DNA of 64,000 nucleotides from Geosiphon pyriformis uo1. Taxonomy: Eukaryota > Fungi > Glomeromycota. The notes beneath the pieces are model-generated. The model searched no databases. It worked only from the letters and a program-made list of their open reading frames with translations, and was not told the origin of the DNA. A program made the position numbers and the translations under genes. Positions 953-62,605 of this stretch are shown piece after piece. The stretch is from positions 1,370,757 through 1,434,756 of the forward strand of contig JAAOMT010000134.1 of assembly GCA_016748015.1 (NCBI GenBank), written 5' to 3'. Positions within the stretch are counted from its first letter, which is position 1, and every line of letters begins with the position of its first letter.

Positions 953-993
953 CTACTAATAATTAAGTTGGTTTGGTTTGAGAAATTGTACTA

Positions 994-3687
994 TTACTGG
1001 ATGGTAAGTTTAGAGAAAGCATCAGCATTTTGATAATTTGCTCCTTTGCAGTGTTAAATATCATAGTTGAATTTATCCAAGTGGAGTATCCAGCAAGTTA
1101 TTTGTTTGTGTTCTAGCTTTTTTTTATTGCACAGCCAAACCAAGACTTGATGATCTATTACTACTAAGAATTTTACACCAAGAAAATATTGATCTTAGTA
1201 ACTAGTAGTCCAAACTACTGCTAAATACTCTTGTTCAGTAACTGAATAGTTCTTTTCTGCTGGTGTGAGAGATCTACTGACATATGCTATGGCATGTTTT
1301 CCGCCATTTTCATTTTTTTGTGAAAAAACAGCACTAAGTTCATAGCCAGATGTATCAGTATAGAGAATAAAAGATTGGTCCAGATCAGGTTGCTTGAGAA
1401 TTGGTTTAGTAACAAGTTTTTCTTTCAGAATTTTAAAAGCTTTTTGTTGATGAGTGCTTCAGTAATAATTAACATTTTTCCTGAGTAGCTGATTGAGAGG
1501 AAAGGCAATTTTGGAAAAATCCTTAATAAATTTGCAATAGTAAGAAGCCAAACCAAGAAAAAAGTGTAGTTCAGGAACATTTATTAGTTGTCTAATGTTC
1601 TGAACTTTTTTAATTTTAGCTAAGTCAGAGAAGATTTCATTTTTTGTAATAAAATGACCAAGGAACTGGGTGAATTGTTATTCAAAAAAAGATTTGATTA
1701 AGTTGATTTTAAGGCCAGCATTTCTGAGCAGGTCAAAAATCTTTTGTAAATGTTCAAGGTGTTCATCCCAGATTTTTGAATATACCATTATGTCATCTAA
1801 ATAAATCAGAACAAAGTTTTCTTTTACTAATTCAAACACTTTATCTATTAGGCATTGAAAAGTGGGAGGAGCATTGATGAGACCAAAAAGCATGACTGTA
1901 AATTCATAGATGTCATACTTGGTGATGAAGGCAGTTTTTTTTCTACTTTTTGGATCCATCTCTATTTGCCAGAATTTAGCAGTTAAGTTAATGGTTGAGA
2001 AGAAAGCAGCACCATTGAATTTATCTAGCATTGCATCAATTTTGGGAAGTGGGTACATGTCTCTTATAGTGATGACATTTAGTTGGTGGTAGTCAATACA
2101 GAAGCACAGGGTTCCATCTTTCTTGGATACCACTACAACTGGGAAAGCCCATTCACTCTTGGTTTCTTGTATAAATCCAAGATCTTTTATCCAGTTTATC
2201 TTTTTTTTGATGAACTCATCATTGCATCTATTGAATTGATAAGGCTTTAAATAGATGGAACAAGTTTTTTTTGTGGTAATGGTGTGTTGTATCACATGGG
2301 TTTGTCCAGAAGTATCACTTTTTTTTGAGATAATTGGGCTATTTCTAGCCAACAGATTTTCAATGTCCACTTTTCTTTCTTTAGGGGAAGGTTCTCTTTG
2401 TTTTACAACTAATAATTGGATTTCAGGTAGTTTATTCTCAAAAGACTTTTGTATTTCTTTAAGTTTTTCTTGAGGTATCAAGCTAATTGGTTTCTAATCT
2501 TTGTAATAGATTAGGCAGGATTTGCATTCATCACTTGGTGAATACAAAAATTTATTACACCAGCACTGTGTATAAGGACCATGCCATCAATAATTGTATT
2601 TGGCTTTCTTGCCAAGTTTTTTGTCAAAAGTTTTTCTGAGGATATTATAGTAGGGCCAGCAGATTAGCTTGCCATTTACCATAATTCCTTCTTTGTCAGT
2701 TTTAACATTGTCCAGTGGCTTGCCATTGCTGGTGAAAATAGTATAGACAAGTTTAGCAGTTTCTTCTTGTTCTTCTTGATCTTCTTTTTCATTGTTTTCA
2801 TCATTATCTGACTTATCTGATTGTTTTTCTTTTTGGTTTTGTTTGGATACTGGAGGGATTGTCTAATGACAGCACTTAACCATAATAGGTTTCTCACCAC
2901 ATCTGATGGTCAGCTTACAGAGTTCATAATCAAGCAAGGCTTTTGCTTTCTTAAACCATTTATTGGCAACTATTATGGTGTATTCTTTGGCTTCAAATAC
3001 TTCCATATCAGTTTCAATGCTGATGTCATTGATTCGGACAGAAACAGCTTTGGCTATGCCCAGATCTTTCTTCTTGTTACCATGTACATTGGTTATTGGT
3101 TTTGTGGATGGTTCATTAATTTTTCTGCCAATTGCTTCTAAAAAGTGTTTGGCAATAACACTAACAGATGATCTACTGTTTAGGATCAGATCAATAAAAT
3201 AACCAGCCACTTGGGCTTTACAAATAAGAGGAGTAATATTGCTGTTGTTAGCAAGTTTAGCTTGATGTGAATGTTTGTTGGTCTTTGGTGTCATTTTTTT
3301 GGATATTAATGATTTATGAAGATCTTTTCTGAACTGTAGGTGGGTCATTAGTTGACCAAATGTAATATGTACTGGGATTTTCATGAGATCTTTAACAACA
3401 AAATAAAAACCAGATTTTTGTATTATTTCTGGGGGTTCTAACTTTGGAAGATTCTTGAAAACTTTGGCCTTTGGTGGCTCATTGTTATCAGCAAATGATT
3501 TGAATGCTTTGTTTGAGTCCAAGACGAAATCAACCTTGGCTTTCTTCTTTTTTTTGGTTGATTCAGAGGTGTTGATTGCTAGTTTATCCATATCATGATC
3601 ATCATTAGTTAGATTAAAAGCATAAAAAGAGTTTTCTTCTGGTTGGCTTGCACTTTTATCTTTTGGAGGTGCATCTATCAGTTTAAA
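994..3687 (-). pseudogene. pol: A1 pol (protease-RT-RNase H), stop-interrupted
   Basis: ORF 2863-3591 (ILNSRSS = decayed DSG protease site) and ORF 1678-2481 (FCIDYHQLN, YPLP, YLDD); ends TAA TAG. Confidence 0.93.
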
Positions 3688-10007: not shown

Positions 10008-11321
10008 TTATATCTGATTTTTGCTGATTATTTGGGTTGGTATTACCACAACAGGTAACCAATCAGGTCGTTTGTGATATTTCTTGAGTCACATGCCATG
10101 AACAGGACGATTACTGAATATTGTTCCATATTGATCTTGTAAGATATAAGAACTATTGTTCAAAACTTTGTTGACTATAAAGAGTCTTTTCCATCGGCTA
10201 GAGAATTTATCACTATAGACATTGTTTCTGTCTGAACGGTATTCCAAAACTAAGTCATCAACACTTAAGAAAAGTGTTTTATAAGTCTTTTTCTTTTTGA
10301 GCTTCTCTTGGAATTGTTTTATCTTTTCAAAGGCAATTATTCGTGCTTCTACCAATGAGTCAAGAATAGTACCAAGTCTTCTTTGCAAAATGTCCTTGTA
10401 ATTTCCTATTGTTATTTCTTCAAAAGGTATTGTTTCTATATCCATTTTTATTGGTAAAGTTGCCATTTATCCATAGAGCAGATAAAAGGGTTCATAACTT
10501 GTTATGTCATGATTCACAGTTCTGTAAGCAAACAAAGCTGAAGGCAACATTTTGCCCCATAGGTTGGTTTCTTCACTGGTTTTGGCTAGGGTTTCACATA
10601 GTGTTCTATTAAAATGTTCCACTAGGCCATTTGTTTGGGGATGATAAGGAGAAGAGAGTTTATGACATATTCCCATTTTTCTGCAAAGTTCTTCAACCAG
10701 TGTACTGAGAAAAGCTCTTCCTCTATCAGATAAAAGTTCTTTGGGGCAGCTGTAGTGACAGATAATATCTTCATAAATGAAATTGGCAATTGAGACTGCT
10801 GTTTGATCTGGGGTGGCTCTTGTTTCTACCCACTTTGTAAGATAGTCGGTAGCTGTGATAATGTATCTGTTGCCATCAGGAGTTACTGTTAAAGGTCCAA
10901 CAACATATATACCAATTTTATTAAATGGTTAACCAACAAAAATTGGATGGATATCTTCCTTGCGATTGGGTTTTCCTCTTCTTTGGCAGGTATTACAGGT
11001 TTTAATGTATTCAGCAATGTCTTTTCCCAAGGTAGACCAATAATAGCAAGCTAAAGTTTTCTGAATTGTTTTTGTTTTTCCAAAGTGTCCAGCTAATGGA
11101 TCAGTGTGCATATTGTAGATCACAATTTCTCTTTCTTCAAATCTAATGACTTTCTGGGGGCGGTTAGGATCTTTTCTATTTCTTTTATATAACTGGTTCT
11201 GACAAATCAAATAGAAATTTCATTGTTTGTGCAAATGTTCTCTTTGCTGTCAAGTATAGTCCAGCAGGTATTGTCCTTTACCCAAAAATTTCATTAAAGC
11301 AGAGTAGTTGTTTAAGTTCAT
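10008..11321 (-). pseudogene. A3 integrase, stand-alone ORF (~437 aa)
   Basis: Own ATG at 11321; HHCC (HTDPLAGHFG..CNTC), LSDRG, QTNGLVEHFNRTL, decayed GPF/Y motif; ORFs 10929-11210, 10467-10676 and 10089-10466 share one frame. Confidence 0.92.
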
Positions 11322-11387
11322 TATCGTGTTTGTTTGTGGGGGAAGTTACAAATAATTAAGTTGGTTTGGTTTGAGAGGGTTTTACTA

Positions 11388-14081
11388 TCACTGGATGGTA
11401 AGTATGAAAAGAGCATCGGCATTTTGATGATTAGCTCCTTTACGGTGTTGAATGTCATAGTTGAATTCGTCCAAGTGGAGTATCCAGCAAGTTATCTGTT
11501 TATGTTCCAGGTTTCTTTTGTTGCATAGCCAAACTAAAGCTTGGTGATTTGTTACCACCAAAAATTTCACACCCTTAAGATATTTGTCCCAGTAGCTGGT
11601 AGCCCAAACTACTGCTAAGCATTCTTGTTCAGTGACTGAGTAGTTCTTTTCTGCTGGTGTGAGAGTTCTACTGGCATATGCTACAGCATGTTCTCTGTTA
11701 TTTTCATCTTTTTGGAAAAGAACAGCACCAAGTCCATAGCCAGATGTATCAGTGTAGAGGATAAAAGGTCGATCCAAATTAGATTGTATGAGAATGGGTT
11801 CTGTAACCAGTTTTTTCTTCAGAATTTCAAATGCTTTTTGTTGATGAGTGCCCCAGTGATAATTGATGTTTTTCCTAAGTAGCTGATTGAGAAGAGCAGT
11901 GATTTTAGAGAAATCCTTGACAAACTTGTGATAATAAGAGGCCAAACCAAGAAAAGAGCATAGTTCATGAACATTCATTGGTTGTCTAATGTTTTGAACT
12001 TTTTCAATTTTGGCTAGATCAGAGAAAATTCCATCTTTTGTAATAAGATGGCCAAGAAACTGGGTGGATTGACGTTCAAAAAATGATTTGATTGGATTGA
12101 TCTTGAGACCAGCATTTCTAAGGAGGTCAAAAATTTTTTGCAAATGTTCAAGGTGTTCATTCCAGGTTTTTAAGTATATCATTATGTCGTTCAAGTAGAC
12201 TAGAACAAAGTTTTCTTTTACTGATTCAAATACTTTGTCCATTAAGCATTGAAAGGTGGGAGGAGCATTTGTAAGACCAAAAGGCATGACTGTAAATTCA
12301 TAGGTATCATACTTGGTGATGAAGGCAGTTTTCTTTCTGCTTTCTGGATCCATCTCTACTTGCCAGAATTCAGCAGTTAAGTCAATAGTTGAGAAGAAAG
12401 CAGCACCATGGAATTGGTCTAGCATTGCATCAATCTTGGGAAGTGGGTACATGTCTCTTTCAGTAATAGCATTTAATTGGCGATAGTCAACACAAAAGTG
12501 TAGGGTTCCTCCTTTCTTGGATACCACTACAACTGGGAATGCCCATTCACTCTTGGTTTCCTGTATGAATCCAAGGGTTTTCATTCGGGTTATTTCTTTT
12601 TTGATAAACTCATCATTGTGCCAGTTGGATTGATAGGGCTTCAAATAGATGGGGCAAGTTTTTCTGGTGATGATGGTGTGTTGTATCACATGTGTACATC
12701 CAGGAGGTTCACCTTCTTTTGAGATAACTGGACTGTTTCTAGCCAGCAGGTTTTCAATGTCTACTTTTCTTTTTTCTGGAGAGGGTTCTCTTTGTTCTAC
12801 AACCAGTGATTGGATTTCAGGTGGTTCGTTTTCAAAGGACTTTTGGACTTCTTTTATTTCCTCTTGGGGTATCAAGCTGATTGGTTCCCAATCTTTGTAA
12901 TAGATCAGGCAGGACATGCATTCATTGCTAGGAGAATACAATGGTTTGTCACACCAGCACCGAGCACAAGAACCATGTCACCAATAATTGTATTTGGCTT
13001 TCTTGCCTGGCTTTCTGTCAAAGGTTCTTCTGAGCATGTCATAATAAGGCCAGCAGATCAGCTTGCCATTGACAATGATTCCTTCTTTATCTGCCTTGAC
13101 ATTATCCAGTGGTTTGCCATTGCTAGTGAAGATGATATAGATGAGTTCAGCAGTTTCTTCTTGTTCTTTTTGTTTTTCTTCTTTCTCACTTTTTTCATCA
13201 TCTGATTCATCTGATTCATTTTTTTCTGGGCTTTGCTTGGGTACTGGGGGAGTTGTCCAATGGCGACACTTAACCACAATGGGTTTCTTACCACATCTGA
13301 TAGTTAGTTTACAGAGTTCATAATCAAGCAAAGTCTTTGCTTTCTTGAGCCATTCATTGCCAACAATAATGGTGTATTCTTTTGCTTCAGACACTTCTAT
13401 ATCAGTTTCAATGCTGATGCCATTGATGCGGACAGGAATAGCTTTGGCTATGCCAAGCCCTTTTTTCTTATCACCATGCACATTGGTCATTGGTCATGTG
13501 GATGATTCATCAATTTTTCTGCCAATTGCTTTAAAAAAGTGTTTGGCAATAACACTAACAGATGATCTACTGTCTAGGATTAAATTGATGAAGTAGCCAG
13601 CCACTTGGGCTTTACAAATTAGAGGAGTAACATTGCTATTGTTAGCAAATTCAGCTTGGCGAGGGTGTTTGTTGGTTTTGGATGTCTTTTTCTTTGGAAT
13701 CAGGAATTTGTGAAGATCTTTTCTGAATTGTGGATGGGTTATCAATTGGCCAAAGGTTATATGTGCTGGGGTTTCCATAAGATCTTTGACAACAGAATAG
13801 GGACCGGATTTTTGTACTATTTCTGGGAGTTCTAACTTTGGAGAATTCTTGAAAACTTTGGCTTTTGAGAGCTCATTGTTGTCAGCAGTTGATGTAGAAG
13901 CTTTATTGGAGTCCAGAACGAAATCAACTTTGGCTTTTTTCTTCTTTCTTGTGGATTCAGAGAGGTTGATTGCTAATTCATCCATGTCATGGTCATCATC
14001 AGTTAAGTTAAAAGCATAAAAGAGGTTTTCTTCTGGTTGGCTTGCACTTTCACCCTTTGGAGGTGTGCCTACCAGTTTAAA
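11388..14081 (-). pseudogene. pol: A3 pol (protease, Cys motif, RT, RNase H) in the -1 frame relative to gag
   Basis: ORFs 13494-13985, 12978-13490 and 11388-12941 share one frame; ILDS, CVDYRQLN, MPFGLTNAP, YLND, YTDTS, NYSVTEQECLA, NADAL. Confidence 0.96.
14043..14081 (-). promoter_or_regulatory. Programmed -1 ribosomal frameshift signal (U UUA AAC plus downstream hairpin)
   Basis: Heptamer at 14075-14081 in X XXY YYZ phase with gag; -1 shift enters the pol frame; conserved at 3681-3687, 8037-8043 and 54194-54200. Confidence 0.85.
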
Positions 14082-16289: not shown

Positions 16290-16869
16290 CTATCTAAAAA
16301 TAGGGTGGCTAATTATATGACATCAGTGGCTAATACATGTAATAATTAATAAAAACTATGTGTTTCAATCATAACAGTATAATGGACAGAGATTCAATAG
16401 TTGTTTTATCCGTAGCTTCCAAGAATCGCAATTCTGTCAATTCTTCTCTTGGCATGATGGCCAGCAATCCTCTGGTAAGTATTCTATATCTTCTGTATGT
16501 GTCCTACCCTCTCGCAGGGGTCTTTTACCAGACAATTCTTGACATCAGTAATCTAGTGCTTTATTCAACCAATTAGTGCACAACAATAAAATCAAAATGA
16601 AATAAAAAAAAGAAATAAAAGAAAAATAAAGAAAGAAAAAAATAAGCCAAGGCAATTTGCAAGTTAGTATTCCATCAATAGCCATAATCAAGAGCTATTG
16701 TTTCAGTGTGGTTAAGTATCAATTACTATCAATATGAAGTGTTGATAGTAGCAGTGGGTTTGAGATAACAAACAGTTATTTATTTGTGGTTTGGAAAGTT
16801 GTCTAGATGAAATCTAAACTGAGAGGTCTGTCTTTTTAGCTTCTAATCCTACTGCTATATATACATAAT

Positions 16870-17035
16870 TAAAATTCTTCAATTCCTCAATTCTTTACAA
16901 CAGGAATTCTGGAATTTCTGGAATTCTGCAATTCCTTTGAGAGGAATCCTGGAATTCTGGAATCCTGTGATTTCTTGTAAGAATCCTGTAATTCTTGGAA
17001 TCCTGTAATTCCTGAGAGGAATCCTGGAATTTCAC
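16870..17035. repeat. GGAATCCTG/GAATTCTG repeat array in the B LTR U3
   Basis: Also at ~700-880, ~26265-26405, ~36600-36705, ~41115-41200. Confidence 0.85.
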
Positions 17036-17120
17036 ATTTTACTACGTCTATTTCTGATTGGTTAATAACTATGCTAATATATATTCCCTATATTTCTATA
17101 AGTAACATTATTCCCTTCTT

Positions 17121-17804: not shown

Positions 17805-19187
17805 TTAATTTAACGTGTTGTTGTCAATGATAATGATTGGTTCCAGATTTTGTAAAATCTCCTCTGGTTGGACTAGTATCTTCTGTACTCTTAATTGTGG
17901 AATATTACTGGTGGATGATAGTGTAATGTTGTGGTATGATTTCAGTTGATCTCCATGTGCTGCTTTGGTTAAGATTTTGTTATCCAGTCTTAATTTGTAA
18001 GCTCCATTCCCTAGAATTTCTTCTATGTGAAATGGTCCATCCCATTTGGGGTTGAATTTTTTATTCCATTGTTTTTTTGCTTTGGTACAATGTAAGAGTA
18101 CTTTGTCTTCAATCTTGAATTCAACTGGTTTGTCTAGTAGTTGATTATCATGTCTTTTTTTCTGTTTCTCTTGTGACTTTTGTATATTATCAGCTGCTTT
18201 TTTTTGTTTGTTTTCTAATGTTTCCATTAAGTCATATGTTCTTCTTAACAATGTTTTTTGGAAATTTTTTTCTGTTATTGGTTCAGTTGGATATGTGTTA
18301 ACCTTTATCTCAACTGGTAATGTTGCTGTTCTACCGTATATCAATTCAAATGGTGTTGTTTGTGTGGTGTCTTACTTCATTGTCCAATAAGCAAATAATA
18401 CTGATGGTATAAACAAATCCCATTCATTCTGGTTTTTTTGGCTGAGTTTTGCTATTGCTTCACACAATGTTCTATTAAATCTTTCAACTAATCCATTGGT
18501 TTGTGAATAATATAATAATGATAATGGTCTCTTAATTCCGAATCTTTGGCTTAATTCTGCTAATGTTCTATTCACAAAATGGGTTCCTTGGTCTGATAAT
18601 AATTCTTTTGGACATTCATGTCGACAAATCAGATATTGATAGACGAATTCGGCAACAGATTCTGCATTCACTCTTTGAATTGCTTTGGCTTCTGGCCATT
18701 TAGTAAGATAGTCCATGGCTACTGCAATATATCTGTTGTCTCTGCTGGTAATTATTAATGGTCTGACTAAATCAATTCCAATATGGTCAAATGGTTGTTC
18801 CACTTTAATTGGTCTCAATAGTTTGCTGGGTCTTGTTTCTTCTCTTCTTTGACAAGCATCACAATTTTGCACATATTGGATGATGTTTGGATACATTGAT
18901 GGCCAATAGTATTTCTTTTTGGTTCTTTCTATGGTTGCTTCTTTATGAAAATGTCCTGCCATTAGATCTGAGTGTATGTTGAACAGTATTGTCTCCTTTT
19001 CTGGTTCTGTAATTATTCTGGTTGGTTAATCTGAATCTTTTCTATTTTTCTGATAAAGTATATTTTGGTGAATGATAAAATATTTGGATTGTTGTTTGAT
19101 CCTCTTTTGTTCTGGTTGAGATAATTTCTTCTTAAACTGTTGAGTATTTATATAATATTGAAGTTGTTAATATTTTTGTGTGTTTAT
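17805..19187 (-). pseudogene. B2 integrase, separate ORF in a different frame from RT
   Basis: HSDLMAGHF..CDAC, IGIDLV, LSDQG, NGLVERFNRTL, WDGPF; presumed start is ATA at 19187 (inferred ATG>ATA). Confidence 0.9.
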
Positions 19188-21074
19188 TTTTTGTTATATT
19201 TTCGTGAGTATTGTTTGGGTTTTGTTATATTTTTGGGTTGAAATGTTCTTAGATTTGTCTCATTTGTGACAAACTGTTGGCATTTCTATTGTCTTTTCCC
19301 TTTTTATAATGTATGGTATAAGTATATAGTACAAGTGCCATTTTCTATCTTGATTGTCTACCATTTCCAAATTCTTGTTTTTGGAGTGATGTTAGTCCTT
19401 TGTGATCTGTATACACTTTAAACTTCTGGCTCAAGTATTCTTTCCATTTCATGACTGCTCAGTATATTGCTAAGTATTCTTGTTCCAGTGTTCTATAGTT
19501 CTTTTCGGCTGGTGTTAAGTCTCAGCTGGCAAATACTACTGAATGTTCTCTTCCATCCAGTTTTTTCTGAGATAGTACTGCTTCCAATGCTTGACCTGAT
19601 ACATTAGTAGTAATGATGAATGGTTTGTTGTGATCTGAATAGATCAATACTGGCACTTAAATGAGCTTTCCTCTTAAAATGTCAAAAGCTTTTTGTTGCA
19701 TTTCCATCCATTCATATTTCACATTCTTGGTTTGTAGATGGTTGAGTGGCTGAGCTATTTTAGAAAAGTTTTTGATGAAGCAACGATAATAGCTTGTAAA
19801 TCCCAAGAATGATTTTAGTTTGGTCACATTGGTTGGTACTAGAAAGTTCTTTACTATTTCTATCTTGTCTGGGTCTGTCTTGATACTGTCTTTGCTGACT
19901 ATATGTCCCAGAAACTTCAGTTCTGTTTTGCCAAAGAAGCACTTGGTAGCATTTAGCTTTAACTCTGCTTGTCACAGTCTTTCGAATACTTGTTGAAGAT
20001 GATGGAGATGATCATCAAATGTTCTTGAGAATATATTGGTGTTGTCTAAGTACACAACTACTGATTTTCACAATAAGCCAGTATACACAATTTTTATTAG
20101 CTGTTGGAAGGTTGCTGGGACATTGGTTAAGCCAAATGGTATTACTTCAAATTCAAAATTTTTTTTTCTTGTGATGAATGTCGTTTTCTTTTTGTCGGCT
20201 GGATCCATGGCTACTTGCCAGTAACCACTATCCAAGTCCAATGTTGTAAACCATTTGTTTCCTCCAAAAGCATCAAATAGTTCTTGTATCTGTGGAGTTA
20301 GATAGCTGTCTCCACAAGTTACACCATTGAGTTTCCTGTAGTCTACACAAAATTGGATTTTTCTATTCTTCTTACAAACAAGTACTACTGGTGACAACCA
20401 TGGGCTCATTGATGACTGAATTAACCTATTGTCAAACATTCAGTTGATCTTTTGATGGATGATTTCATGGCTGGCTAGTGGTACCCTATATGCTCACTGT
20501 TTGATTGGTATTGCATTCTCAATCTTGATTTGATGCTGGATAATATCAGTTCTGCCAAATTTGTTTTTACTAGTGAAGATGTCATTGAAATTATTAAGTA
20601 ACATTTTTAGTTGTATCTGTTGAAGTGGGTCTAGATTTCCCATATTTATCTGTTCCAATTGTTCTGACTGTAACAGATAACATTTATTTCATCTGTAGAT
20701 GGTTTGTGATGTAATGTTCACATATTCACAAAGCTATGGAAAATCTGAAATGCTGCTTGGTGTTTGATCTTCAATTTCCATGGTTAAATATCTAAGAGTG
20801 GTTCCTTTTGGTATTTTTACAACATTTCTGGTGTTGTTGTAGATGGGAATTTTGATATGGTTATGGCTTTTGGCTGGTATGTGTAGATTGATAAGTCCAA
20901 TTTCTCCTAATTCACAAAGGATTGCTTCTGCTTCAAAAATCTGTTTGTGTTCCTTCTCTTTTCTTTCTATTGCTAATATGTATTGGCTATATGATGAAAT
21001 GAAAATTGTTTGACCAGTTGAGATAACTTTTCCTTAGCCAATAATTTTTTTCTCTACCATATTGACTGGTATAT

Positions 21075-21480
21075 TTATTCTACCTGTGGATCCAAATTTC
21101 TGTATTCCTCTTGCTGTTATCTCTAGTTCTTTTCTGTTTCCTACTGATATTAATTGAGCTATTTTAACCAGAGGCAAGAAGATTGCTTGTACTATCTTTT
21201 TGTTTGGCTTTATAATATAGGTCTTTTCTGAGTCATTTTGTAGCATGGCGATAATATTTCCTATATATCCTGTGTTAATTATTCCTCTTCTGATATTTAT
21301 CTCTCTTTTCACTAGACTACTCTTAGATGCTAATTAAACTATTGTTGTTGCCAGAATTTCCAGTGCTATTTTTAAATCAATGCAGATGCGTGAATGTGGT
21401 TCCAATTGAATGGCATCTTTTCCTAAATACCTCAGATTAAACCTGGCATCAGTATCATGTGTGCATTCTGGCATAATACC
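21075..21480 (-). pseudogene. dut: Trimeric dUTPase domain of B2
   Basis: Five motifs in order: HDTDARFNLRY, ASKSSLVKR, GIINTGYIG, KIVQAIF, RGIQKFGSTG. Confidence 0.9.
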
Positions 21481-21701
21481 TTCATTATTATCGCTGAACC
21501 ATTTAAGTTCTTGTTCCTTGGCAAGGTCAAGGAGTGCAATATATTGTTCAAAGTCTGAATCAGAGTTTAAATCTGAGTTGGAATTGTTGTCATTGTTATC
21601 GCCATATTGGACAGAGCTGGAACCAGTGTTTTTGTCATCATTATTGTCAGAGTTTGAATCGGGATTAAAAATCGATTCCGATTCTAATGCACAGCTGCTA
21701 A

Positions 21702-21889
21702 TTGGTTCCTCTTCCTCTGGGATTGTGTATATCATGTGTAGTGGTGGATTGTAAATGAGGTCACACTCATTACAATATTGAAAGTCACATGGAATTTGGT
21801 TTCTCTTCTTCTGGGATTGTGTAGATCATATGTGATGGTGGATTGTAAATAAGATCACACTTATTACAATATTGAAAGTCACATGGAAT
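21702..21889. repeat. 94-bp tandem duplication in B2 pol
   Basis: Units start at 21702 and 21796; single copy in B3 and B5. Confidence 0.92.
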
Positions 21890-24800
21890 CAAACAGTGGT
21901 TACATAGTCAAATATTTATTTCTTCCAACTATTGCTCTTGTTCTTTTCAAGTAGGTGTCAACTGTTGATAGTACTCGTGGAATTCTTCTGGATTGTTCTC
22001 AATGTTACTAAATATGTCAAACATTAGGACATATTCAGGTTCAGGCAAAAATAGGGGGTTGTTTTTGATTTCTAGTAGTTTATTGATTGTCACACCTTTT
22101 GCCTTCGCACTTGTTATTCTCCAGAGTTCATGTTCATTGTATGGATATCCTTCCAATTGTTATAATGCTTGTTTTTAGGCATTGTCAATTGGTGTTCTCT
22201 TGTGTACCCAATCATTGATTAGTATTGTATACTGACAGATTTCATCACATGTTCTTTTTCTCCCAGGAATGTTGTTCCACATTCCTTCATCAAGGAGAGT
22301 TTCCTCACAAGCTAAACATAGTGTATTATCCCATTTTCCCATTTGTTTTGGTCTTCCAAAGCATTCAATGAGACATGTGTGGCAATAAAACTTAGTTGCT
22401 GTCTGGTATTCCTCATCATCATTACAGCATGTGCCCATTGACGACAATTTCTTGTCACAATCAATGCATATGAGCTTTGGTCGGTAATAGCTTGATAATT
22501 GTGATAGTATATATGTATAAGAGGTGTAACTGGCAGTTGGTAGTGGGTCTTTTTCTTTCACTTTTTCTTTTCCTTTTTCTCTCTTATCCTATTCCCAAAT
22601 TGGTGGTTCTTCTAAGTCGTGATCGGTGTTCCAGGCTTGGTTTGCATTCCAAGTAGGTTCTGTTCTCTTCTGTTTTCCTTTGCCGTTGTCATCCCATGAG
22701 AGTATTGGCAGCAGCTCGTTGTGTTTTTTGTCAGTCCACAAGATTTGATATGCTTCTCAAGTAGGTTTTGGTTTTTTTTTTTCGAGATCAATTAAAGATG
22801 CTGTGGTGTTGGTAGCTTTGAAGTGACCACACATTGCTGGTACTTGTGTGTGTCAACCATTCTGGCTGAGTACTAGTTTTTAAGTCATCTAATCAAGCAC
22901 AGCATTGGTTTTGAATAGCTAGTCATTACTAACTAAAACTTGGTATTGGGTGGCTTTTATCACCAGAACTTTAATGAGTACTACAATGCTATTGACTTCA
23001 ATTGGGAAGTTATCGATTTCACCAATTGGGGTTTTGGTGGCTCCATCTGTGGTGATAATCCTGGCACTGGCAGCACAATCAACTTGGTGACCTAATTGAT
23101 CTATGAGTTGTTGTATGATGATATTGTCTGCTAAACTACTGTTAAGGATTAATTTGATGGAATGGCTATCGATCTTGGTGTCAGTGTACATGGCCATAAT
23201 CAGTTTCTCTTCAAGTGCTGCTCTACTGAATAATGGCATATCTAATGGTTTCTCGAGTTTGAATAGAAAAATGGCATCCAAAGATTCATTTTCGGTAATT
23301 GTAGCAGGTGGGATATTATTGGTAGGTGGTTGTTGTTGTTTGATTCTCTGATTGCTAGATGTGGCATCTTCTGGAGTTATCAGAAGGCTTAAATAGTATT
23401 GAGAATTCGGGTTTTGGGTGGGACCAGTGCCCGGATTCCACTGACAAGATCCTGATTGTTAATAGGAAGAGCTGGGGATTGGTTAATATACAACCATCGC
23501 CGATCTCCAGTTTTGGGTAATCCTCGATCTTGGGTTCTTTGATGTCATTTGAGCTGGGTTTGCTGGTAGTGTTTGAATGATGGGTGTTTGATAGATTGCT
23601 GGTGGCTGTGGTTGATATATTACTTGTGGCTGCACTTGATAAATTGCTTGTAGTAGCGGTTGATAAACTGGTGGTTGATAAATTGGTTGGTGTGTCATAG
23701 ACAGATAAGTGGGTTGGTATTGGTCTTAATTTGGGTGATGGTTCGGAGTCTGGAACTGGTAATTGGGGTTTCTATATTGATTTCCCAATCATAGATTGCT
23801 ATAAGTATGGCAGTTGGCTCTGATGTGCTCTTGTTTATCACAGTTGTGGCAGATGCATGTCTCTGGCTGCCACGACTGATTGAATGACGATGATAGACAT
23901 GACTAATTTTGGAAATGATTCGCATTTCCCTAATTGTTATGCCATTGAAGAGGTTGATAAATTATGTGATTGTCAGTTAAGTATCTCTCTAATTTCTGAT
24001 TAATTGAATTACTGAATTGCTTCAATTTGGAATCCAATTCAGATGATTTATTCATTGTTAGATTCACAGCTTAGGTGTGATTAGCTTCTAGTTCAGCTGT
24101 TTTAAAATCTCTGGCATAGATGACTGTGATTGGAAGATCTACTGGGTGCATTGGACGTATTTTTTGTAGGATGCCACTGTGTAATCTTCTAATAAATTGA
24201 TTTAAAATCTGTGGCACTGTGAAATAGTCAGCTTGGATGGCTTGTATTTGGCATAGATTTCTATGGAAGTGTTCTAAGTAGGTAATGACTGCTTTAGTGT
24301 CCCTTTGTTTAATGGTGGTAAATGTGTTGGTCAAGTGATTGATATTATTGTTATTACTAAAGTATCTCAAGAATTCTGTTTTGAACTCATTGAAGATTTG
24401 TGGTTTGGTGGCTAGGCTTTGATACCATGAGTCGGCAGTATCTTTGAGAAAATAGGGGATCACTTGAAGGGCTTTACCATCATTCTATCTATTGGTCATT
24501 ATGGCTTTTTTAACATTGTTGAGCCATATTTGGGCATCATTCTCTTCACCAGTAAAATTGTCAAGTTTTGCGATTGGTGCATAGGCCATTGGATCTAAGT
24601 TGGGTTGTTGTGGTGGTAGTTGAAGTGGTTGTTGTTGTACAGGTTGTTGGGGTGGTAGTTAAAGTTGTAGTTGTAGGGATTTGGCTACTGGATTAATTGG
24701 TGGTTGATCGATGACAATTACTGAAGGTAAGTTTTGTTGATTTATTAAATCAGAGTTTCAATTATCTTGAGTTGACAGTGTCTAAATATTCGGAGTTTCA

Positions 24801-26481
24801 ATTTCTGGATTTTCTGGGTTTAGATTTTGCTGGGTTTGAAGATTTAGGGTTTCAAATTCCAGGTTTTCAGTGATCAGGTTCTGGTAAGTGAATTCTTGAT
24901 CTTCAGCTTCTTCTTCTTCCTCTTCTTCTAATTCTGTTACTTTCCATGGATCAGAAATTCCGAAATTTGGGGGAGGTGGTGGTGATCAAAGTCCTGATGG
25001 CATTGATGATTACAAGTTAAATCCTTCAAAATACACGCCATATGGTCCTAATAACTCTGCTTTCTTTTGTTTACTTTGGAATGAGAATTGTCCAAATGCT
25101 GATGTCATGTTTGATGTGGCCACACTGGTAGATGTAATATTAATGGCACTTCCAGGTGTATAGTAGTATAATGGATTAGTTGGAGACTCAGCTTTTGTTT
25201 TCTTCCAAATAGGTGGTTGTATTCTTTTGGGTGTTACTGCTGGTGTTTGCAGTTTTTCTTTGCCTTTGTTCACATAAGTAATAGAGTATCTTTGCTGTGT
25301 GTGGTGTTCAATTTCTTTGTTGATTTCTGTGATGATAGAGGTGAAATTGTGATTTATTAGCAGGTTGGTATTTTGAATTAATTCACTGTAAAAGGCTTCT
25401 CTTGCTGATTTAATATTTACTGGTGTTCCTAACAGATAGGCAATTCTTTCATTGATGTAGAAATTGAAAGCTGATTCCACTAATATGTGGTTGTGATTTA
25501 ATCCCAAATGTTGACAGTAGTGTTAAAATAAGAATTTTGCAAATCCTAAATGGTTTGCTTCTATGTTTTCTGATTCTGCCACTTTTAAATTTGTGTTGGT
25601 GCTGGTTTTCTGTAGGATTATACCTTATAGGGAGCACCAAATGTTACAGGTGATTATTTCTAGTGTTAAATTAAATAACAAATCTGTAACTTGGTGCTAA
25701 AAGTTATTTGCATTAATGTTATTAATCTGAAGATTTTGTATCTAAAGGTTTTGGTTTGAGTTCTTTGTATAATGGACAAAGATTCAATAGTTGTTTTATC
25801 TGTAGCTTCCCAGAATTGCAATTCTGTTAATTCTTCTCTCAGCGTAATGGCTGGCAATTTTCTGGTAAGTATTCTGTATCTTCTGTATATGTCCTACCCT
25901 CTCGCAAGGGTCTTTTACCAGGCAATTCTTGACATCAGTAATCTAGTGCTTTATTCAACCAATTAGTGCACAACAATAAAATCAAAATAAAATAAAATAA
26001 AAAAATAAAAAAAAAATAAAAAAAGAAAAGAAATAAGCCAAGGTGATTTACAAGTTAGTATTCTGTCAATAGCCGTGATCAAAAGCTATTGTTCTAGTAT
26101 GGTTAAGTATCAATTACTATCAATATAAAGTTTTGATAGTGGCAGTGGATTTGAGATAACAAACAGTTATTTATTTGTGGTTTGGAAAGTTGTCTAAATA
26201 AAATCTAAACTAAGAGGTCTGTCTTTTTAGCTTCTAATCCTACTGTTATATATACATAATTGAAATTCCTCAATTCCTCAATTCTTTACAACAGAAATCC
26301 TGGAATTTCTGGAATTCTGCAATTCTTTTGAGAGGAATTCTGGAATTCTAGAATCCTGCGATTTCTTGTGAGAATCCTGTAATTTCTGGAATCCTAGAAT
26401 TCCACATTTTACTATGTCTACTTCTAATTGGTTAATAACTATGCTAATATATATTCTTTATATTTCTATGAGTAATACTGG

Positions 26482-28689
26482 CTACTTTATTAATTTGATC
26501 CTAAACAGTGGATTATCTGTCAGTGTAATTGCCAAACACTTTTTGGAAGCCATTGGAAGAAAGATTGATGAATCTTCTATCTGGTCTATGACCAATGTAC
26601 ATGGTGACAAAAAAAAAGGTCTGGGTATAGCCAAAGCTGTTCCTGTTTACATTAATAGTATTAGCATTGAAACAAACATGGAAGTATTTGAAGCAAAAAA
26701 GTATACTATCATTGTTGATAATGAGTGGCTTAAAAAAGCCAAAGCACTACTTGACTATGAACTTTGTGAGCTAACTATTAGATGTGGTGAGAAACCCATT
26801 ATGATTAAATGCTGTTATTGGACAACTTCTTCAGTAACCAAACAAAACCAAGAAAAAGAACAATCAAATGAATCAGATGATGATAAGAGTGATGATGAAA
26901 AAGATCAAGAAGAACAAAAAGAAACTGCTGAACTTGCTTATACCATCTTTACCAGCAATAGCAAGTTACTGGACAATATTAAAGCAGATAAAAAAGGAAT
27001 CATAATAAATGGCAAGCTAATCTGCTGGCCCTACTATGATATTCTCAAAAGAACTTTTGACAGAAAGCCTGGCAAGAAAGCCAAATACAGTTATTAGTGG
27101 CATGGTCCTTGTGTCAGGTACTGGTGTGATAAATTTTTGTATTCTTTTAGTGATGAATGCAAGTTCTGTTTAATCTATTACAAAGATTGGAAGCCAATTA
27201 GTTTAATACCCAGAGAAAAACTAAAAGAAGTACAGAAATCTTTTAAGAGTGAACCACTTGAAATTCAATCACTAGTTGTAGAACAAAGAGAACTTTTCCT
27301 TAAAGAAAGAAAAGTGGACATTGAAAATTTGTTGGCTAGGAATAGTTTAGTTATCTCAAAAGAAAGCAATACTCCTGGACAAATCCATGTAATACAACAT
27401 ACTATTATCACAAAAAAAACTCATTCATTCATTTGAAGCCTTATTAATCCAATTAATACAATGATGAGTTTATCAAAAAAAAGATAAACTGGATGAAAGA
27501 TCTTGGATTCATACAAGAAACCAAGAGTGAATGGGCTTTCTCAATTGTAGTGATATCCAAAAAAGATAAAACTTTATGCTTCTGTGTTGACTACTGTCAA
27601 TTAAATGCCATCACTATAAGAGACATGTACCCACTTCCCAAAATTGATACAATGCTAGATAAATTCAATGGTGCTGCTTTCTTCTCAACCATTAACTTAA
27701 CTGCTAAATTCTGGCAAGTAGAGATAAATTCAGAAAGCAGAAAGAAAACTGCCTTCATTACCAAATATGGCACCTATGAATTCACAGTTATGCCTTTTGG
27801 TCTTACCAATGCTCCTTCTATTTTTCAACACCTAATAGACAAAGTATTTAAATCAGTAAAAGAAAACTTTGTTCTGGTCTATTTAGACAATATAATGGTC
27901 TACTCAAAAACCTGGGATGAACACCTTGAACATTTGCAGACGGTTTTTAACTTGTTCAAAAATATTGGCCTTAAGATCAACCCAATCAAATCTTTCTTTG
28001 GACACCAATCCACCCAGTTTCTTGGTTATCTTATTACAAAAGATAGAATCTTTTCTGACCCAGCTAAAGTTGAAAAAGTTCAGAATATCAGACAATCAAT
28101 AAATGTTTCTGAACTATGCTCTTTTCTTAGTTTGGCCTCTTACTATCACAAATTTATTAAAGATTTCTCCAAAATCGCCTTTTCTCTCAATCAGCTATTC
28201 AAAAAAAATGTCAATTATTACTGGGGTACTCATCAACAAAAAGCTTTTGAAATTCTGAAAGAAAAACTTGTTACTAAACCAATTCTCAAGCAATCTGATT
28301 TGGATCAATCTTTTATCCTTTACACTGATACATCTGGCTATGAACTTGATGTTGTTCTTTTACAAGAAGATGAAAATGGCAGAAAACATGCCATAGCTTA
28401 TGCTAGTAGATCTTTTACACCAGCAGAAAAAAACTATTCAGTTATTAAACAAGAATGTTTAGCAATAGTTTGGGCTACTAGTTACTGGAATCAATATTTT
28501 CTTGGTGCAAAATTCTTAGTGGTAATAGATCATCAAGTCTTGGTTTGGCTGCACAATAAAAAAAAGCTGGAACACAAATAAATAACTTACTAAATACTCC
28601 ATTTAGATGAATTTGACTATAATATTTAATACTGCAAAGGAGCAAATCATCAAAATACTGATGTTCTCTTTAAACTTACCATCTAGTGA
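26482..28689 (+). pseudogene. pol: A2 pol, remainder (protease-RT-RNase H)
   Basis: ORFs 26414-27097, 27137-27436, 27493-28581; ends TGA TAG at 28687-28692. Confidence 0.92.
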
Positions 28690-28753
28690 TAGTACAATCT
28701 CTTAAACCAAACCAACTTAATTATTAGTAACTTCTTTACAAACAAACACAATA

Positions 28754-30061
28754 ATAGACTTGGACAACTACTCTGCCTTAATAGAATTTTTGGGTAAAGG
28801 ACAATACTCACCAGAATACACTTGACAGCAAAAAAAACATTTGCACAAACAATTAAATTTCTATTTAATTTGCCAGAACCAACTATATAAAAGAAATAGA
28901 AAACATTTTGACTGCCTTTAGAAAGTCATCAGATTTGAAAAAAAAGAAATTGTAATATACAACATGCACACTGACTTATTAGCTAAACATTTTGGAAAAA
29001 CAAAGACAATTTAGAAAACTTTAGCTCATTATTATTGGCCTACCTTAGGAAAAGACATTGCTGAATACATCAAAACCTGTGACATCTGCCAAAGAAGAGA
29101 CAAACCCAATTGCAAAGAAGATATCCATCCAATTTCTATTAGTCAACTATTTAACAGAATTAGTATAGATGTTATTGGATTTTTAACAATAACTCTTGAT
29201 GGCAACAGATATATTATTATAACTACCAATTATTTTACAAAGTAAGTAGAAGCAAAAGCCACTTCAGACCAAACAGCAGTCTCAATACCCAATTTTATTT
29301 ATGAAGATATTATCTGCCATCATGGCTGCTCCAAAGAACTTTTATTTGATAGAGGAAGAGCTTTTTTTAGTACACTGGTTGAAGAACTTTGTAGAAAAAT
29401 GGAAATACATCATAAACTTTCCTCCTCTTATCAATCTTAAACAAATGGCTTAATAGAACATTTTAATAAAACACTATGTGAAATCTTAGCCAAAACCAGT
29501 AAAGAAACAAACTTATGGGACAAAGTACTGCTTTCATTTTTGTTTGCTTATAGAACTGTAAATCATGACATAACAAGTTATAAACCTTTTTATCTGCTCT
29601 ATAAACACATGACAACACTACTAATAAAAACTAATATTAAGATAATACTCTTTGAAGAAATTACAATAAGAAATTACAAAGACATTTTGCAAAGAAGACT
29701 TAGTACTATTTTTGACTTCTTAGTAGAAGCATAAATAATTGCTTTTAAAAAGATAAAACAGTTTCAAGAAAAGCTTAAAAAAAAGAAAACTTATAAAACA
29801 CTTTCTTTAAGTATTGGTAATTTGGTACTAAAATACTATTCAGACAGAGACAATGTCTATGGTGATAAATTCTTTAGCTGATAAAAAGAACTCTTTATAG
29901 TCAACAAAGTTTTGAACAATAGTTCTTATATTCTTTAAGATCAATCTGGAACAATCTTCAATGATTATTCTGTTCATAGTACATGACTTAAGAAATATTA
30001 TAAACGACTTGATTGGTTGTCTGTTGTGATAATACTGACTCAAATAATCAACAAAAATTAA
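28754..30061 (+). pseudogene. A2 integrase ORF
   Basis: Colinear with 10008-11321; CDIC; FAYRTVNH. Confidence 0.85.
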
Positions 30062-54206: not shown

Positions 54207-56881
54207 ACACACCTCCAAAGAGTAAGAGTGCAAGCCAACCAGAAAAAAACCCCTTTTACACTTTTAATCTAATTAATGATGACCATAATATGGATGAACT
54301 AACAATCAATATCTCTGACTTAACAAGAAAGAAGAAGAAAGCCAAGGTTGATTTCGTTCTAGATCCCTACAAAGCCTTAACTTCCATTGCTGACAACAAC
54401 AAACCACCAAAGGCTAAAGTTTTTAAAAATTCTCCAAAATTGGAACCTCCAGAAATAGTACAAAAATCTGGTCCTTATTCTGTTGTTAAAAATCTTATAG
54501 AAACCCCAACACACATTACATTTGGCCAACTAATGACCCATCCACAGTTCAGAAAAAATCTTCACAAATCATTAATACCAAAAAAAAAGACACCAAAAAC
54601 CAATAAGCATTCTTGTTAAGCTGGACTTGCTAATAACAGCAATGTTACTTCTCTGATTTGCAAAACCCAAGTGGCTGACTATTTTATTGATTTGATTCTA
54701 GACAGTAGATTATCTGTTAATGTAATTGCCAAACATTTTCTGGAAGCCATTGGAAGAAAGATTGATGAACTTTCTATCTGGTCTATAACCAATATACATG
54801 ATAACAAAAAAAAAGGTCTGGATATAACCAAAGCTGTTTCTGTTCGCATTAATAGTATCAGCATTGAAGCAGACATAGAAGTATCTAAAGCAAAAAAATA
54901 TACTATTATTGTTAGTAATGAGTGGCTTAAGAAAGCCAAAGCACTACTTGACTATGAACTTTATAAGCTAACCATCAAATATAATAAGAAACCCATTGTA
55001 ATTAAATGTTGTTATTAGACAACTTCTTCAGTAACCAAACAGAACCAAGAAGAAAAACAATCAGATAAATCAGATGATAATAAGAGTGATGATAAAAAAG
55101 ATCAAGAAAAACAAGAAAAAACTGCTGAATTCACCTATACTATCTTTACTAGCAATGGCAAGCCACTAGACAATGTTAAAGCTGACAAAGAAAGAATCAT
55201 GATAAATGGCAAGCTGATCTGCTGGTCCTACTATGACATCCTCAGAAGAATCTTTGATAAAAAACCTGGCAAGAAAGCCAAATACAGCTATTGGTGACAT
55301 GGTTCTTGTGCCAGGTGCTAGTATGATAAATCTTTGTATTCTCCTAGTAATAAATGCAAGTTCTGCCTAATCTATTATAAAGATTGGGAGCCAATTAATT
55401 TGATACCTAGAGAAGAACTAAAAGAAGTACAAAAGTCTTTTGAGAGTGAACCACCTGAAATCCAATTCTTAGTTGTAGAATAAAGAAAACCTTCCTTTGA
55501 AGAAAAAAAAGTGGACATTGAAAATCTGTTGGCTAGAAATGGCCCAATTATTTCAAAAGAAAATGACACTCCTAGACAAACTCATATAATACAACACATC
55601 ATTACCACAAAAGAAACTTGTCCCATCCATTTGAAGCCTTATCAATCTAATTGACACAATGATGAGTTTATCAAAAAAGAGATAAACAGAATGAAAGATC
55701 TTGGATTTATACAAGAAACCAAGAGTAAATAAGTTTTCTCAGTTGTAATAGTATCCAAGAAAGGTGGAATCCTATGCTTCTGTGTTGACTACCACCAACT
55801 AAATGCCATCACTATAAAAGACATGTACTCACTTCCCAAAATTAATGTAATGCTAGATAAATTCAATAGTGCTGCTTTTTTCTCAATCATTAACTTAACT
55901 GCTGGATTCTGGCAAGTAAATCCAAAAAGCAGAAAGAAAACTGCTTTTATTACCAACTATGACACCTATGAATTTACAGTCATGCTTTTTGGTCTTACTA
56001 ATACTCCTCCCACTTTTTAACACCTAATAGATAAAGTGTTTAAATCAGTAAAAGAAAACTTTGTTTTGGTTTACTTAGACAACATAATGGTATATTCAAA
56101 AATCTGGGATAAACATCTTGAACATTTACAGAAGATTTTTGACCTGCTCAGAAATGCTGGCCTTAAAATCAACCTGATCAAATTTTTTTTTGGATGCCAA
56201 TTTACTTAGTTCCTTGGTTATTTTATTACAAAAAATGGAATCTTCTCTGACCTAGCTAAAGTTGAAAAAGTTCAGAACATTAGACAATTAATAAATGTTC
56301 TTGAACTATGCTCTTTCCTTGGTTTGGCCTCTTACTATTGCAAATTTATTAAGAATTTCTCCAAAATCGCCTTTCTTCTCAATCAGCTACTCAAATAAAA
56401 TATCAATTATTACTGGGGCACTCATTAACAAAAAGCTTTTGAAATTCTGAAGGAAAAACTTGTTACTAAACCAATTCTCAAGCAACTTGATCTGAACCAA
56501 CTTTTTATCCTCTACACTAATACATCTGGCTATAAACTTGGTGCTATCCTTTCACAGAAAGATGAAAATAGCAAAGAACATGCCATAGCATATGCCAGTA
56601 GATCTCTTACACAAGCAGAAAAAAACTATTCAATTACTGAACAAGAATGTCTAACAGTAGTTTGGACTACTAACAACTGGGATTAATATCTTTTTGGTGC
56701 AAAATTCTTAGTGGTAACAGATCATTAAGCCTTGGTTTGGCTGCACAATAAAAAGAAGCTGAAACACAAATAAATAACTTGCTAGATACTCCACTTGAAT
56801 GAATTTGACTATAATATTCAACACCACAAAAGAGTAAATCATCAAAACACTAACACTTTCTCTAGACTTACCATCCAGTAA
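54194..56881 (+). pseudogene. pol: A4 pol (protease-RT-RNase H)
   Basis: ORFs 54290, 54671, 55823; ends TAA TAA at 56879-56884. Confidence 0.9.
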
Positions 56882-56945
56882 TAATACAACTTTTTAAACC
56901 AAACCAACTTAATTATTAGTAACTTCTTTACAAACAAACATGATA

Positions 56946-58260
56946 ATGGACTTGGACAACTACTCTGCCTTAATGGAATTTTTAGGTAAAGAACAATACT
57001 CACCAGAATACATTCAATAGCAAAGAAAACATTTGCACAAACAATCAAATTTCTATTTGATTCACCAGAACCAGCTATATAAAAGTAATAAAAAAGATTC
57101 TGACCACTTCCAGAGAGTCATCAGATTTAAAGAAAGAGAAATTGTAATATACAACATATACACTGACCCATTAGCTGGACACTTTGGAAAAACAAAGACA
57201 ATTCAGAAAACTTTAGCTTGCTGTTATTGGCCTACTTTAGGAAAGGACATTGCTGAATACATTAAAACCTGTGACATCTGCCAAAGAAGAAACAAACCCA
57301 ATTGCAAAGAAGATATTTATCCAATTTCTGTTGGTTAATCATTTGACAGAATTGGTATAAATGTTGTTGAATCTTTAACAATAACTCCTAATAACAACAG
57401 ATATATTATTACAGCTATTGACTATTTTACAAAATGAGTAGAAGCAAGAGCCACTCCAGACCAAATAGCAGTCTCAATAGCTAATTTTATTTATGAAGAT
57501 ATTATCTGCCATTATGGCTGTCCCAAAAAACTTTTATTTGATAAAGAAAGAGCTTTTTTCAGTACACTGGTTAAAGAACTTTGTAGAAAAATGGGAATAC
57601 ATCATAAACTTTCTTCCCCTTATCACTTCCAAACAAATGGCCTAGTGAAATGTTTTAATAGAACACTATATAAAACCCTAGCCAAAACCAGTAAAGAAAC
57701 AAACTTATGGAACAAAGTATTGCTTTCAGCTTTGTTTGCTTATAGAACTGTGAATCATGACATAACAAGTTATAAACTTTTTTATCTGTTCTATGGACGC
57801 ATAGCAACACTACCAATAGAAACTAATATTGAGACAATACCCTTTGAAGAGATCACAATAGGAAATTACAAAGACATTTTGCAAAAAAGACTTGGTATCA
57901 TTCTTGACTCCTTAGTAGAAGCACGAATAATTGCTTTTGAAAAGATAAAACAGTTCCAAGAAAAGCTTAAAAAAAAAACAAACCTATAAAACACTTTCTT
58001 TAAGTATTGGTAATTTAGTATTGAAATACTGTTTAGATAGAAACAATGTCTATGGTGATAAATTCTCTAGCTGGTAGAAAGAACTCTTTATAGTCAACAA
58101 AGTTTTGAACAATGATTTTTATATTCTTCAAGATCAATTCAGAACAATTTTCAATAATCATTTTGTTTATGGTACACAACTCAAAAAATATCATAAACGA
58201 TCTGATTGGTTGTCTGTTATGATAATACTGACTCAAATAATCAGCAAAAATTAAATATAA
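56946..58260 (+). pseudogene. A4 integrase ORF with its own ATG
   Basis: ATG GAC TTG GAC AAC at 56946; ORFs 57033-57338 and 57591-57989. Confidence 0.88.
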
Positions 58261-60790: not shown

Positions 60791-62605
60791 TAGATATATC
60801 AGTTAATATAGCAAAGAAAGAAATTATTGACAAAAAAGAAATTATCTTTACCTGTTAATCAATTTCTATCCTGTCATATAACTAGCACATATTAGCCATA
60901 AAAAGAAAAGTAAAAGATCAAGCTCAAATTTTTGAAGTAAAAACAACAATTTGTGAATTAGGAAAGATTGGACTTACTAATTTTACATACCAGCCAAAAG
61001 CTTGAAACACATAAAAATTCTCATCTACAATACAACTGGAGACATCATTAAAATACCAAAAAAAACCACTATCAGATATTTAAGCACTAAAGTTAAAGAC
61101 CAACCAAATACCATTCCAGATTTTCCACAACTGTGTAGATATGTAGATATTATATCATAAACAATATATGGATAAAAAGAATGCTATTTGCTCTAACCAA
61201 AACAATTAGAACAAATAAACTTGGAAAACTTAGATCTATTCCAACAAATGCAACTCAAAATATTACTTAACAATTTCACTGATATCTTTGTTAATGAAAA
61301 CAAATTTGGCCAAACTGATATTATCCAGCATTAGATCAAAACTGGAGATGCAATGCCAATCAAACAAAAACATACAGAGTATTACCAATTAGCTATAAGA
61401 TCATCTAACAGAAAATTAATCAGATATTAGACAACAGGTTAATTCAATCATCAATGAGTTTATGGTTGTCACCAGTAGTACTAGTCTGTAAGAAAAATAG
61501 AAAAATTTACTTTTGTGTAGATTACAGAAAACTCAACAGTATTACTTATGGAGATAGCTATCCAATTCCACAAATTCAGAAATTATTTGATGCTTTCAAA
61601 AAAAAGAAATGGTTCTCCATATTAAATTTGAATAGTGATTACTAACAAGTAGTCATAAATCCAGCCAATAAGAAAAAAACTGTATTCACAATTAAAGAAA
61701 GAAATTTTAAATTTGAAGTAATGCTATTTGATTTAACCAATGCACTGACAACTTTCCAATGGCTAATAGAATTGTCTATACTAAACTGCTATAGAAATCA
61801 GTAGTTGTGTATTTAGATAACACTAATGTGTTCTTAAAAACTTTTAATAATTATCTTTATTATCTACAACAAATGTTTGAAAGACTAAGAAGAGCAGAGC
61901 TAAAGTTAAATGCCACTAAATACTTCTTTGGCAAAACAGAATTGAAATTTTTGGAACATATCATAAGCAAAGGCAGCATTAAAACAGATTCAGATAAAAT
62001 TGAGATAGTCAAAAACTTTTCGGTACCAACAAACTTGACAGAACTACAGGCATTTTTGGAATTTGCTAAATACTATTGCTGCTTTATACAAAACTTCTCA
62101 AAAATAGCTCAATCATTCTATCAGCTTTAAGCCAAGAATGTGAAATATAAATGGACTGAAAAGCAACAAGAAGCTTTCAACATTTTAAGAAAAAAGCTCA
62201 TTTAAGCACCAGTATTGATCTATTCAGACCACAACAAACCATTCATCATTACCACCAATGTATCAGATCAAGTATTGAGAGCAGTATTATTGCAGAGAAG
62301 ACCAGATAAAAGAGAATACCCAGTAGCATATGTTAGCTAAAGTTTAAGTCCAGCTAAAAAGAACTATGAAACACCAGCACTAGAACACTTAGCTATTTAT
62401 TGGGATAGAAGAAATACTTAAGCCAGAAATTTGATATTTACACTAATCACAAAGGGTTGACATCAATTCAGAAGCAAGAATTTAGAGACAACTTTCATGC
62501 TAAATAGAAAAAAAAAATGAAAATACTGATAGTTTGTTGCAAATAAAACAAATCTAAGAACATTTCAACCCAAAAATATAACAAAAGATAAATATACAAA
62601 AATAT

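Follow-up and report, generated by a model that had tools for sequence, protein, structure and literature searches.

A lineage of fungal Ty3/gypsy elements with a split integrase

The split between RNase H and integrase that we describe here in Ty3/gypsy elements is real and lineage-wide, and sequence comparison makes it very probable that their integrase occupies a reading frame of its own, opened by a conserved start codon. Two families of these elements, A and B, lie nested and decayed in a 64,000-nt stretch of Geosiphon pyriformis DNA (the window). Family B has a spaced junction with a conserved spacer core; a hairpin is carried by a sub-lineage of relatives, not by the window. The window copies are dead, and what we say about mechanism rests on intact relatives.

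Two decayed families and their junctions

The window elements have the domain order Gag-PR-RT-RH-IN, and the best solved-structure match of the integrase is Ty3-G Gag-Pol (E 2.8e-50). A check for polypurine tracts found a purine-rich run ahead of both 3′ LTRs; inspection of the sequence alone for primer-binding sites found TGG near the A2 5′ LTR and none in B2. All 120 matches listed for the protein of the B2 protease region come from G. pyriformis. The families are 44% identical in RT-RNase H and 39.5% in integrase, and within the window we found no LTR or gag matches between them. The LTR pairs are 88.8% (B2), 90.8% (A2), and 88.6% (A4) identical. Decay in the window is almost purely by transitions, which make up 53/54, 57/60, and 57/62 of the differences in three LTR pairs.

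Table 1. Features of the window and of hairpin-bearing loci (window positions unless a locus is named)
Feature	Position	Strand	Description
B2 3′ LTR	16377..17105	-	88.8% to 5′ LTR; ends approximate
B2 5′ LTR	25767..26475	-	ends approximate
B2 integrase frame	17805..19187	-	460 codons, 3 internal TAA; N-terminal extension, HHCC, rve, SH3_Tf2-1
B2 RT-RNase H frame	19252..20556	-	8 internal stops
B2 Gag	24071-24484	-	Retrotrans_gag; Gag and protease region together 22919..24484
B2 protease region	22919-23458	-	100% identical to a Geosiphon pyriformis gene model
TAA ending B2 RT-RNase H	19249..19251	-	
B2 spacer	19188..19248	-	61 nt, A/C-rich, unstructured, ATG-free; second TAA, 31-nt tandem duplication
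39-nt run identical in B2 and B5	19220..19258	-	end of RNase H, stop, spacer; 62548-62586 in B5
Decayed integrase start, B2	19185..19187	-	ATA; column 1 of integrase profile
B5 junction	62555..62590	+	TAA, 30-nt spacer with second TAA, ATA; LTR cut at 62606
A1 junction	954..996	-	TAA TAG and part of spacer; truncated by B-family LTR
A2 junction	11319..11390	-	TGA TAG, 66-nt spacer, ATG of integrase
A3 junction	28687..28756	+	TGA TAG, 64-nt spacer, start decayed to ATA
A4 junction	56879..56948	+	TAA TAA, 64-nt spacer, ATG
Hairpin loci	L002:4462-4506, L003, L004, L007, L012, L016, L019, L024, L025, L085:160-204		

Family A appears to insert repeatedly into family B copies and into other A copies, and its insertions show apparent 4-bp target duplications (8647-8650 / 16377-16380; around 51922 / 59591). 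Just ahead of its gag stop lies a slippery heptamer (U UUA AAC type; 14075-14081, minus strand; 54194-54200, plus strand) whose register would let a −1 shift lead into the protease frame. Family B has ∼2.3 kb of coding-like sequence with no assigned role between protease and RT (20560-22900, minus strand) and a 5′ ORF ahead of gag (25010-25522). A fragment of a DDE_1 (Tc1/pogo-type) transposase lies at 46608-47408 on the plus strand (E 2.9e-21).

As the initial annotation had it, Pol of B2 and B5 ends at TAA (19251-19249 on the minus strand and 62555-62557), followed by a 61-nt spacer out of frame in B2 and a 30-nt spacer in frame, with a second TAA, in B5; the presumed integrase start reads ATA in both copies (19187-19185 and 62588-62590). 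The N-terminal integrase extension that it ascribed to both is visible in B2 only, because a family-A LTR at 62606 cuts B5 after six codons. The B2 ATA stands 71 codons ahead of the first zinc-finger His. The second TAA is common to both copies (62579-62581 in B5, 19227-19225 in B2), and the 31-nt difference in spacer length results from the tandem duplication in B2, which has a 14-nt unit at 19189-19202 and 19220-19233. Across RT-RNase H, 287 of 1233 bases differ between B2 and B5 (23%) and the longest identical run is 23 nt; both TAAs of each copy fall inside a 39-nt identical run (P ∼1.4e-4 for that one place). RNase H ends in tandem stops in all four A junctions, the three complete ones having 64-66-nt spacers. 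With these stops, and with no cross-matches between their LTRs or gag, the two families differ in both parts and yet are both split, as had been proposed.

The stops could be decay of a once-fused Pol, by C-to-T change in dead copies, but we regard this as highly improbable. The step from CAA to TAA is a single one, and the LTR-pair differences are nearly all transitions. However, the intact relatives described below are split as well, and the spacer is better conserved than coding DNA while varying by 31-32 nt. TAA occupies only 4 of the 53 CAA/TAA codon positions in B2 RT-RNase H and integrase.

Family B copies were also sought in DNA reads of one sample (three runs, region 18900-19600), which gave 7055 contigs in run X1, 1 in X2, and 0 in X3; the window itself may come from X1. 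The annotation had predicted an ancestral ATG at 19187. In the X1 contigs ATG (19185 T>C on the plus strand) accounts for 64% of the depth (198,929 of 313,171 units), and this majority again speaks against decay. Relative to the B2 spacer, joints in these contigs leave out 31 and 32 nt. A constant in-frame linker, named beforehand as contrary evidence, was not seen, B spacers being 29-30 and 61 nt long. The deepest of 30 bins of the X1 family contigs, 19236-19259, lies inside the 39-nt run. The stop positions are absent from the 40 difference rows listed for X1 (all at least 57%; 153 further rows), and we infer that TAA is in the majority at the family-B stops.

Intact relatives and phylogeny

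We compared B2 integrase with the best 120 of 1105 near-length homologues (392-453 aa), a search design unable to show fusions. None of these 120 had an RT-RNase H match. The start lies at most three columns from the profile start in 100 of the 120 and exactly 71 residues ahead of the first zinc-finger His, as does the B2 ATA, in 73. The second residue of those integrases is Asp (63), Glu (19), or Asn (18); Met-Asp, Met-Glu, and Met-Asn N termini belong to the NatB class. Because the near-length search was blind to fusions, longer proteins were searched as well (best 120 of 440), and the close ones proved to be four Glomeromycotina gene models with profile columns missing at or near the join.

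Of 571 metagenome loci, we examined the best 80. The 11 that have RNase H upstream and an integrase score above 400, a cut set post hoc with the scores already seen, are without exception split and begin integrase with ATG at profile column 1; both RT-RNase H and integrase hold 0-2 stops each in these loci. L084 is a twelfth close, largely intact split relative. Spacers of the 12 measure −8, 30 (L011), 62, 63, 74, 89 (L001), 110, 163, 278, 308, 365, and 727 (L018) nt and fall in all three frames; the −8-nt case, L021, is a stop/start overlap (ATGGATAA). The 28 fused junctions among the metagenome loci have integrase scores below 380; two fused proteins reach 424 and 408 but lie outside the split RT branch. 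Eight candidate split loci (L034, L042, L058, L065, L067, L068, L073, L080) were set aside: because they score below 365, lack a column-1 ATG, and have linkers like those of fused kin, we read them as single frameshifts or stops, and L058 entered the trees as fused. Viral contigs gave three weak loci only and no match to the hairpin.

Restoration of a fused Pol, through intron removal or read-through, appears very unlikely. The spacers of B5, L010, and L011 are in frame, and three Glomeromycotina gene models inside the split branch (P0121, P0122, and P0128) show RT and integrase in one protein. In each of these models, profile columns are missing at the join or close to it, as expected if introns had been predicted there. 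Against a fused Pol, integrase is out of frame with RT-RNase H at 9 of the 12 intact junctions, tandem stops occur among the in-frame junctions, and the L001 and L005 spacers contain no GT. Moreover, RNase H stops where it normally does, at its last motif, and integrase begins with Met at a fixed column.

The RT-RNase H tree (80 rows, mixture model, quick search, unrooted, no named reference elements; 30 single-stretch matches of 150 used as RT representatives) has one 21-row branch, SH-aLRT 97, that holds 13 of the 14 split rows and none of the 52 fused rows. The remainder of the branch is five RT-found proteins without integrase and the three gene models; a smaller tree recovered the same branch with SH-aLRT 91. 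L031 is split and yet lies outside. The branch is nested among fused gypsy rows, and the named hosts of its members are Geosiphon, Rhizophagus, and Cetraspora. The unrooted integrase tree places 11 of 14 split rows on one branch (support 97), with L011, L023, and L031 apart at weak support. That the split is a lineage trait, as first suggested from the window, agrees with its presence in both A and B and with an RT branch of split rows free of fused members; mapped onto trees, the trait gathers on one RT branch, whereas in the integrase tree the split rows do not form one branch.

The relatives show further features. Extra ORFs stand behind integrase in the window (9310-9942 and 17346-17651, both minus strand) and in two relatives (L002:5890-6333 and L018:8758-9450); the ORFs behind integrase in A, B, and the relatives had no Pfam match above cut-off, and BLASTP, Pfam, and Atlas, the last giving leads only, found no homology among them. 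Pol-frame tails of 268-587 aa, acidic and partly Cys/His, follow RNase H at L002:3494-4438, L018:4942-6702, and L084:137-940; in the two that were scanned, Pfam gave nothing above cut-off. At L011:1-2919, Gag comes after a long Cys-rich repeat region (>450 aa). In L093, L099, L102, and L104, integrase lies upstream of RT. Eukaryotic LTR-retrotransposon sequence also sits inside bacterial MAGs (L084, L085, L087-L089, L093-L104), likely through binning contamination.

Spacers, start signals, and routes to integrase

A purine occupies −3 at 18 of 21 integrase starts against a background of 56% (P=0.004). Seven spacers of 30-163 nt together hold one upstream ATG, where 5.9 are expected (P=0.019); spacers of 278-727 nt hold 22 against 23 expected, i.e., no depletion, and their last 81-150 nt are ATG-free. 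An ATG-free zone of at least 60 nt precedes the start in 14 of 17 loci vs. 27% of background gaps, uncorrected for spacer composition. In L026 the upstream frame extends 65 nt beyond the integrase start. Folding of nine hairpin-free spacers, both B spacers included, gave stabilities not above those of shuffles, and the A and B spacers are unstructured.

For family B, we give about an even chance to termination followed by scanning reinitiation. Ribosomes would finish RT-RNase H at its stop, remain on the RNA, scan the short unstructured spacer, and restart at the integrase ATG. Integrase output would then lie below the Pol level, its N terminus would be fixed by initiation without protease, and the protein would be packaged into the particle in trans, via RNA or Gag/Pol binding. 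Reinitiation seems the simplest reading for short, ATG-free spacers like those of family B. Simple scanning that begins at the stop cannot pass the 22 upstream ATGs of the 278-727-nt spacers; given this misfit, internal entry or a subgenomic RNA would be indicated in some sub-lineages. The fungal viruses CHV1 and HvV190S reinitiate, and in TURBS-type reinitiation stop and start lie within ∼20-30 nt, according to the excerpt of PMC10275272 that we used. Only L021, L011, and B5 fall in this range; B2 (61 nt), family A (64-66 nt), and 10 of the 12 intact relatives (>30 nt) lie beyond it.

A further candidate signal was found in nine metagenome loci of one integrase sub-branch, which carry a covarying hairpin from 3 to ∼35 nt ahead of the integrase ATG. 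It consists of a 4-bp stem, an 11-nt one-sided bulge, and an 8-bp stem that contains a bulged A and is capped by a triloop. Across its 12 pairs, 94% of cells are paired and 8 pairs have changed on both sides; the covariation beats 500/500 shuffles and all slid controls, the structure having been read from the same sequences. With a model built from the nine loci, one of eight loci searched, L085, gave a tenth and independent example (E 4.7e-11) in which every pair is standard. Rfam gave 0 matches at E up to 1 for 18 loci. Hairpin and RNase H occur together on one locus, L002.

This hairpin would suit a separate integrase gene for which ribosomes enter internally at the spacer, independently of upstream translation, a reading that we consider rather unlikely. 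Internal entry would also accommodate a spacer that is A-rich single strand in A and B and structured in the sub-lineage, junction geometries from −65 to +727 nt, long spacers with upstream ATGs but ATG-free ends, and the wide ATG-free zones. However, the hairpin model has no match in the window or in the remaining 71 of 80 metagenome loci, and overlap junctions are better explained by stop and restart.

Spliced subgenomic RNAs express env of retroviruses and Pol of foamy viruses, and integrase could likewise come from a subgenomic RNA, made by splicing or from an internal promoter. A Kozak-like context and ATG-free leaders resemble an ordinary 5′ UTR, and long spacers would be accounted for. 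We nevertheless hold this route to be unlikely: splice acceptors (branch point plus YAG) are not in excess across 17 loci (4 vs. 3.7 and 8 vs. 7.8), and 5 of 21 loci lack any AG in the 40 nt nearest the start. An internal promoter, for its part, would need neither the 8-nt overlap junction nor a covarying RNA structure.

Tentatively, and with rather less confidence than in reinitiation, we suggest an old, truly polycistronic clade of fungal LTR retrotransposons in which Gag, RT-RNase H, integrase, and a fourth protein would be made from separate cistrons of one genomic RNA, with a new class of signals that includes the hairpin and with integrase packaged in trans. The protease of L018 is separate from RT too. 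Four cistrons are present in this intact locus, namely Gag-PR, a long-tailed RT-RNase H, integrase, and an ORF of 230 aa, with gaps of 33, 727, and 41 nt (L018:3360-3394, 8716-8758).

Known systems and significance

In textbook LTR retrotransposons and orthoretroviruses, integrase enters the particle only within Pol, and protease frees it. The elements described here share with Ty3/gypsy elements (Metaviridae), such as yeast Ty3, their LTRs, Gag, the order PR-RT-RH-IN, and an integrase with HHCC, rve, and SH3 parts. Canonical members cleave integrase from a Pol polyprotein, whereas in the window elements and their relatives it lies outside Pol; we therefore class them as a Ty3/gypsy variant and not as canonical members. 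A survey of 25 fungi, in the part drawn on here, reports for the most part either a single fused ORF or gag and pol apart (PMC2864245).

LINE-1 offers a similar spacing, with non-overlapping ORF1 and ORF2 frames ∼60 nt apart: in the excerpted text of PMC4091050, ORF2 lies behind a 63-nt spacer, requires upstream translation, and is made by low-level reinitiation. However, LINE-1 is a non-LTR element whose downstream ORF is the whole EN-RT, and its spacer and AUG are described there as dispensable; here integrase lies downstream in LTR elements, and both spacer and start look conserved. CHV1, HvV190S, SART1, and TURBS viruses likewise place a second cistron behind a long ORF, fungi included (PMC10275272, same excerpt), and the 8-nt overlap of L021 is alike, but at most junctions of the present elements 30-727 nt separate stop and start, farther than TURBS distances. 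Tat elements carry an extra RNase H in its own ORF, likewise a Pol-type enzyme in a separate ORF of a Ty3/gypsy element, in the passages of PMC10508981 and PMC13468544 consulted; that ORF is an additional domain and integrase stays in pol, whereas here integrase itself is separate. Ginger and GIN are gypsy-type integrase-only proteins (PMC2836005, in part), unlike the split elements, where integrase stands directly behind RT-RNase H inside an LTR element. We found no description of an LTR element with a separate integrase ORF in the portions consulted of the literature searched, main texts only, with Repbase, GyDB, and subscription journals outside its scope (including PMC2864245, PMC10508981, PMC13468544, PMC5006619, PMC5911963, PMC6431247, PMC4427930, PMC11952901, PMC10275272, PMC4091050, 10.1101/2021.03.30.436303, and 10.64898/2026.05.21.726589).

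LTR sequence makes up 41.2% of the G. pyriformis genome in the section of PMC11952901 used here, and the split layout may therefore be common in these fungi. The layout explains the many integrase-only gene models of Rhizophagus, and tools that assume a single pol ORF would label split elements as broken. The natural intact junctions are material for testing reinitiation and internal entry in fungi. A clade with a free integrase must handle translation, dosage, and packaging of the enzyme in another way.
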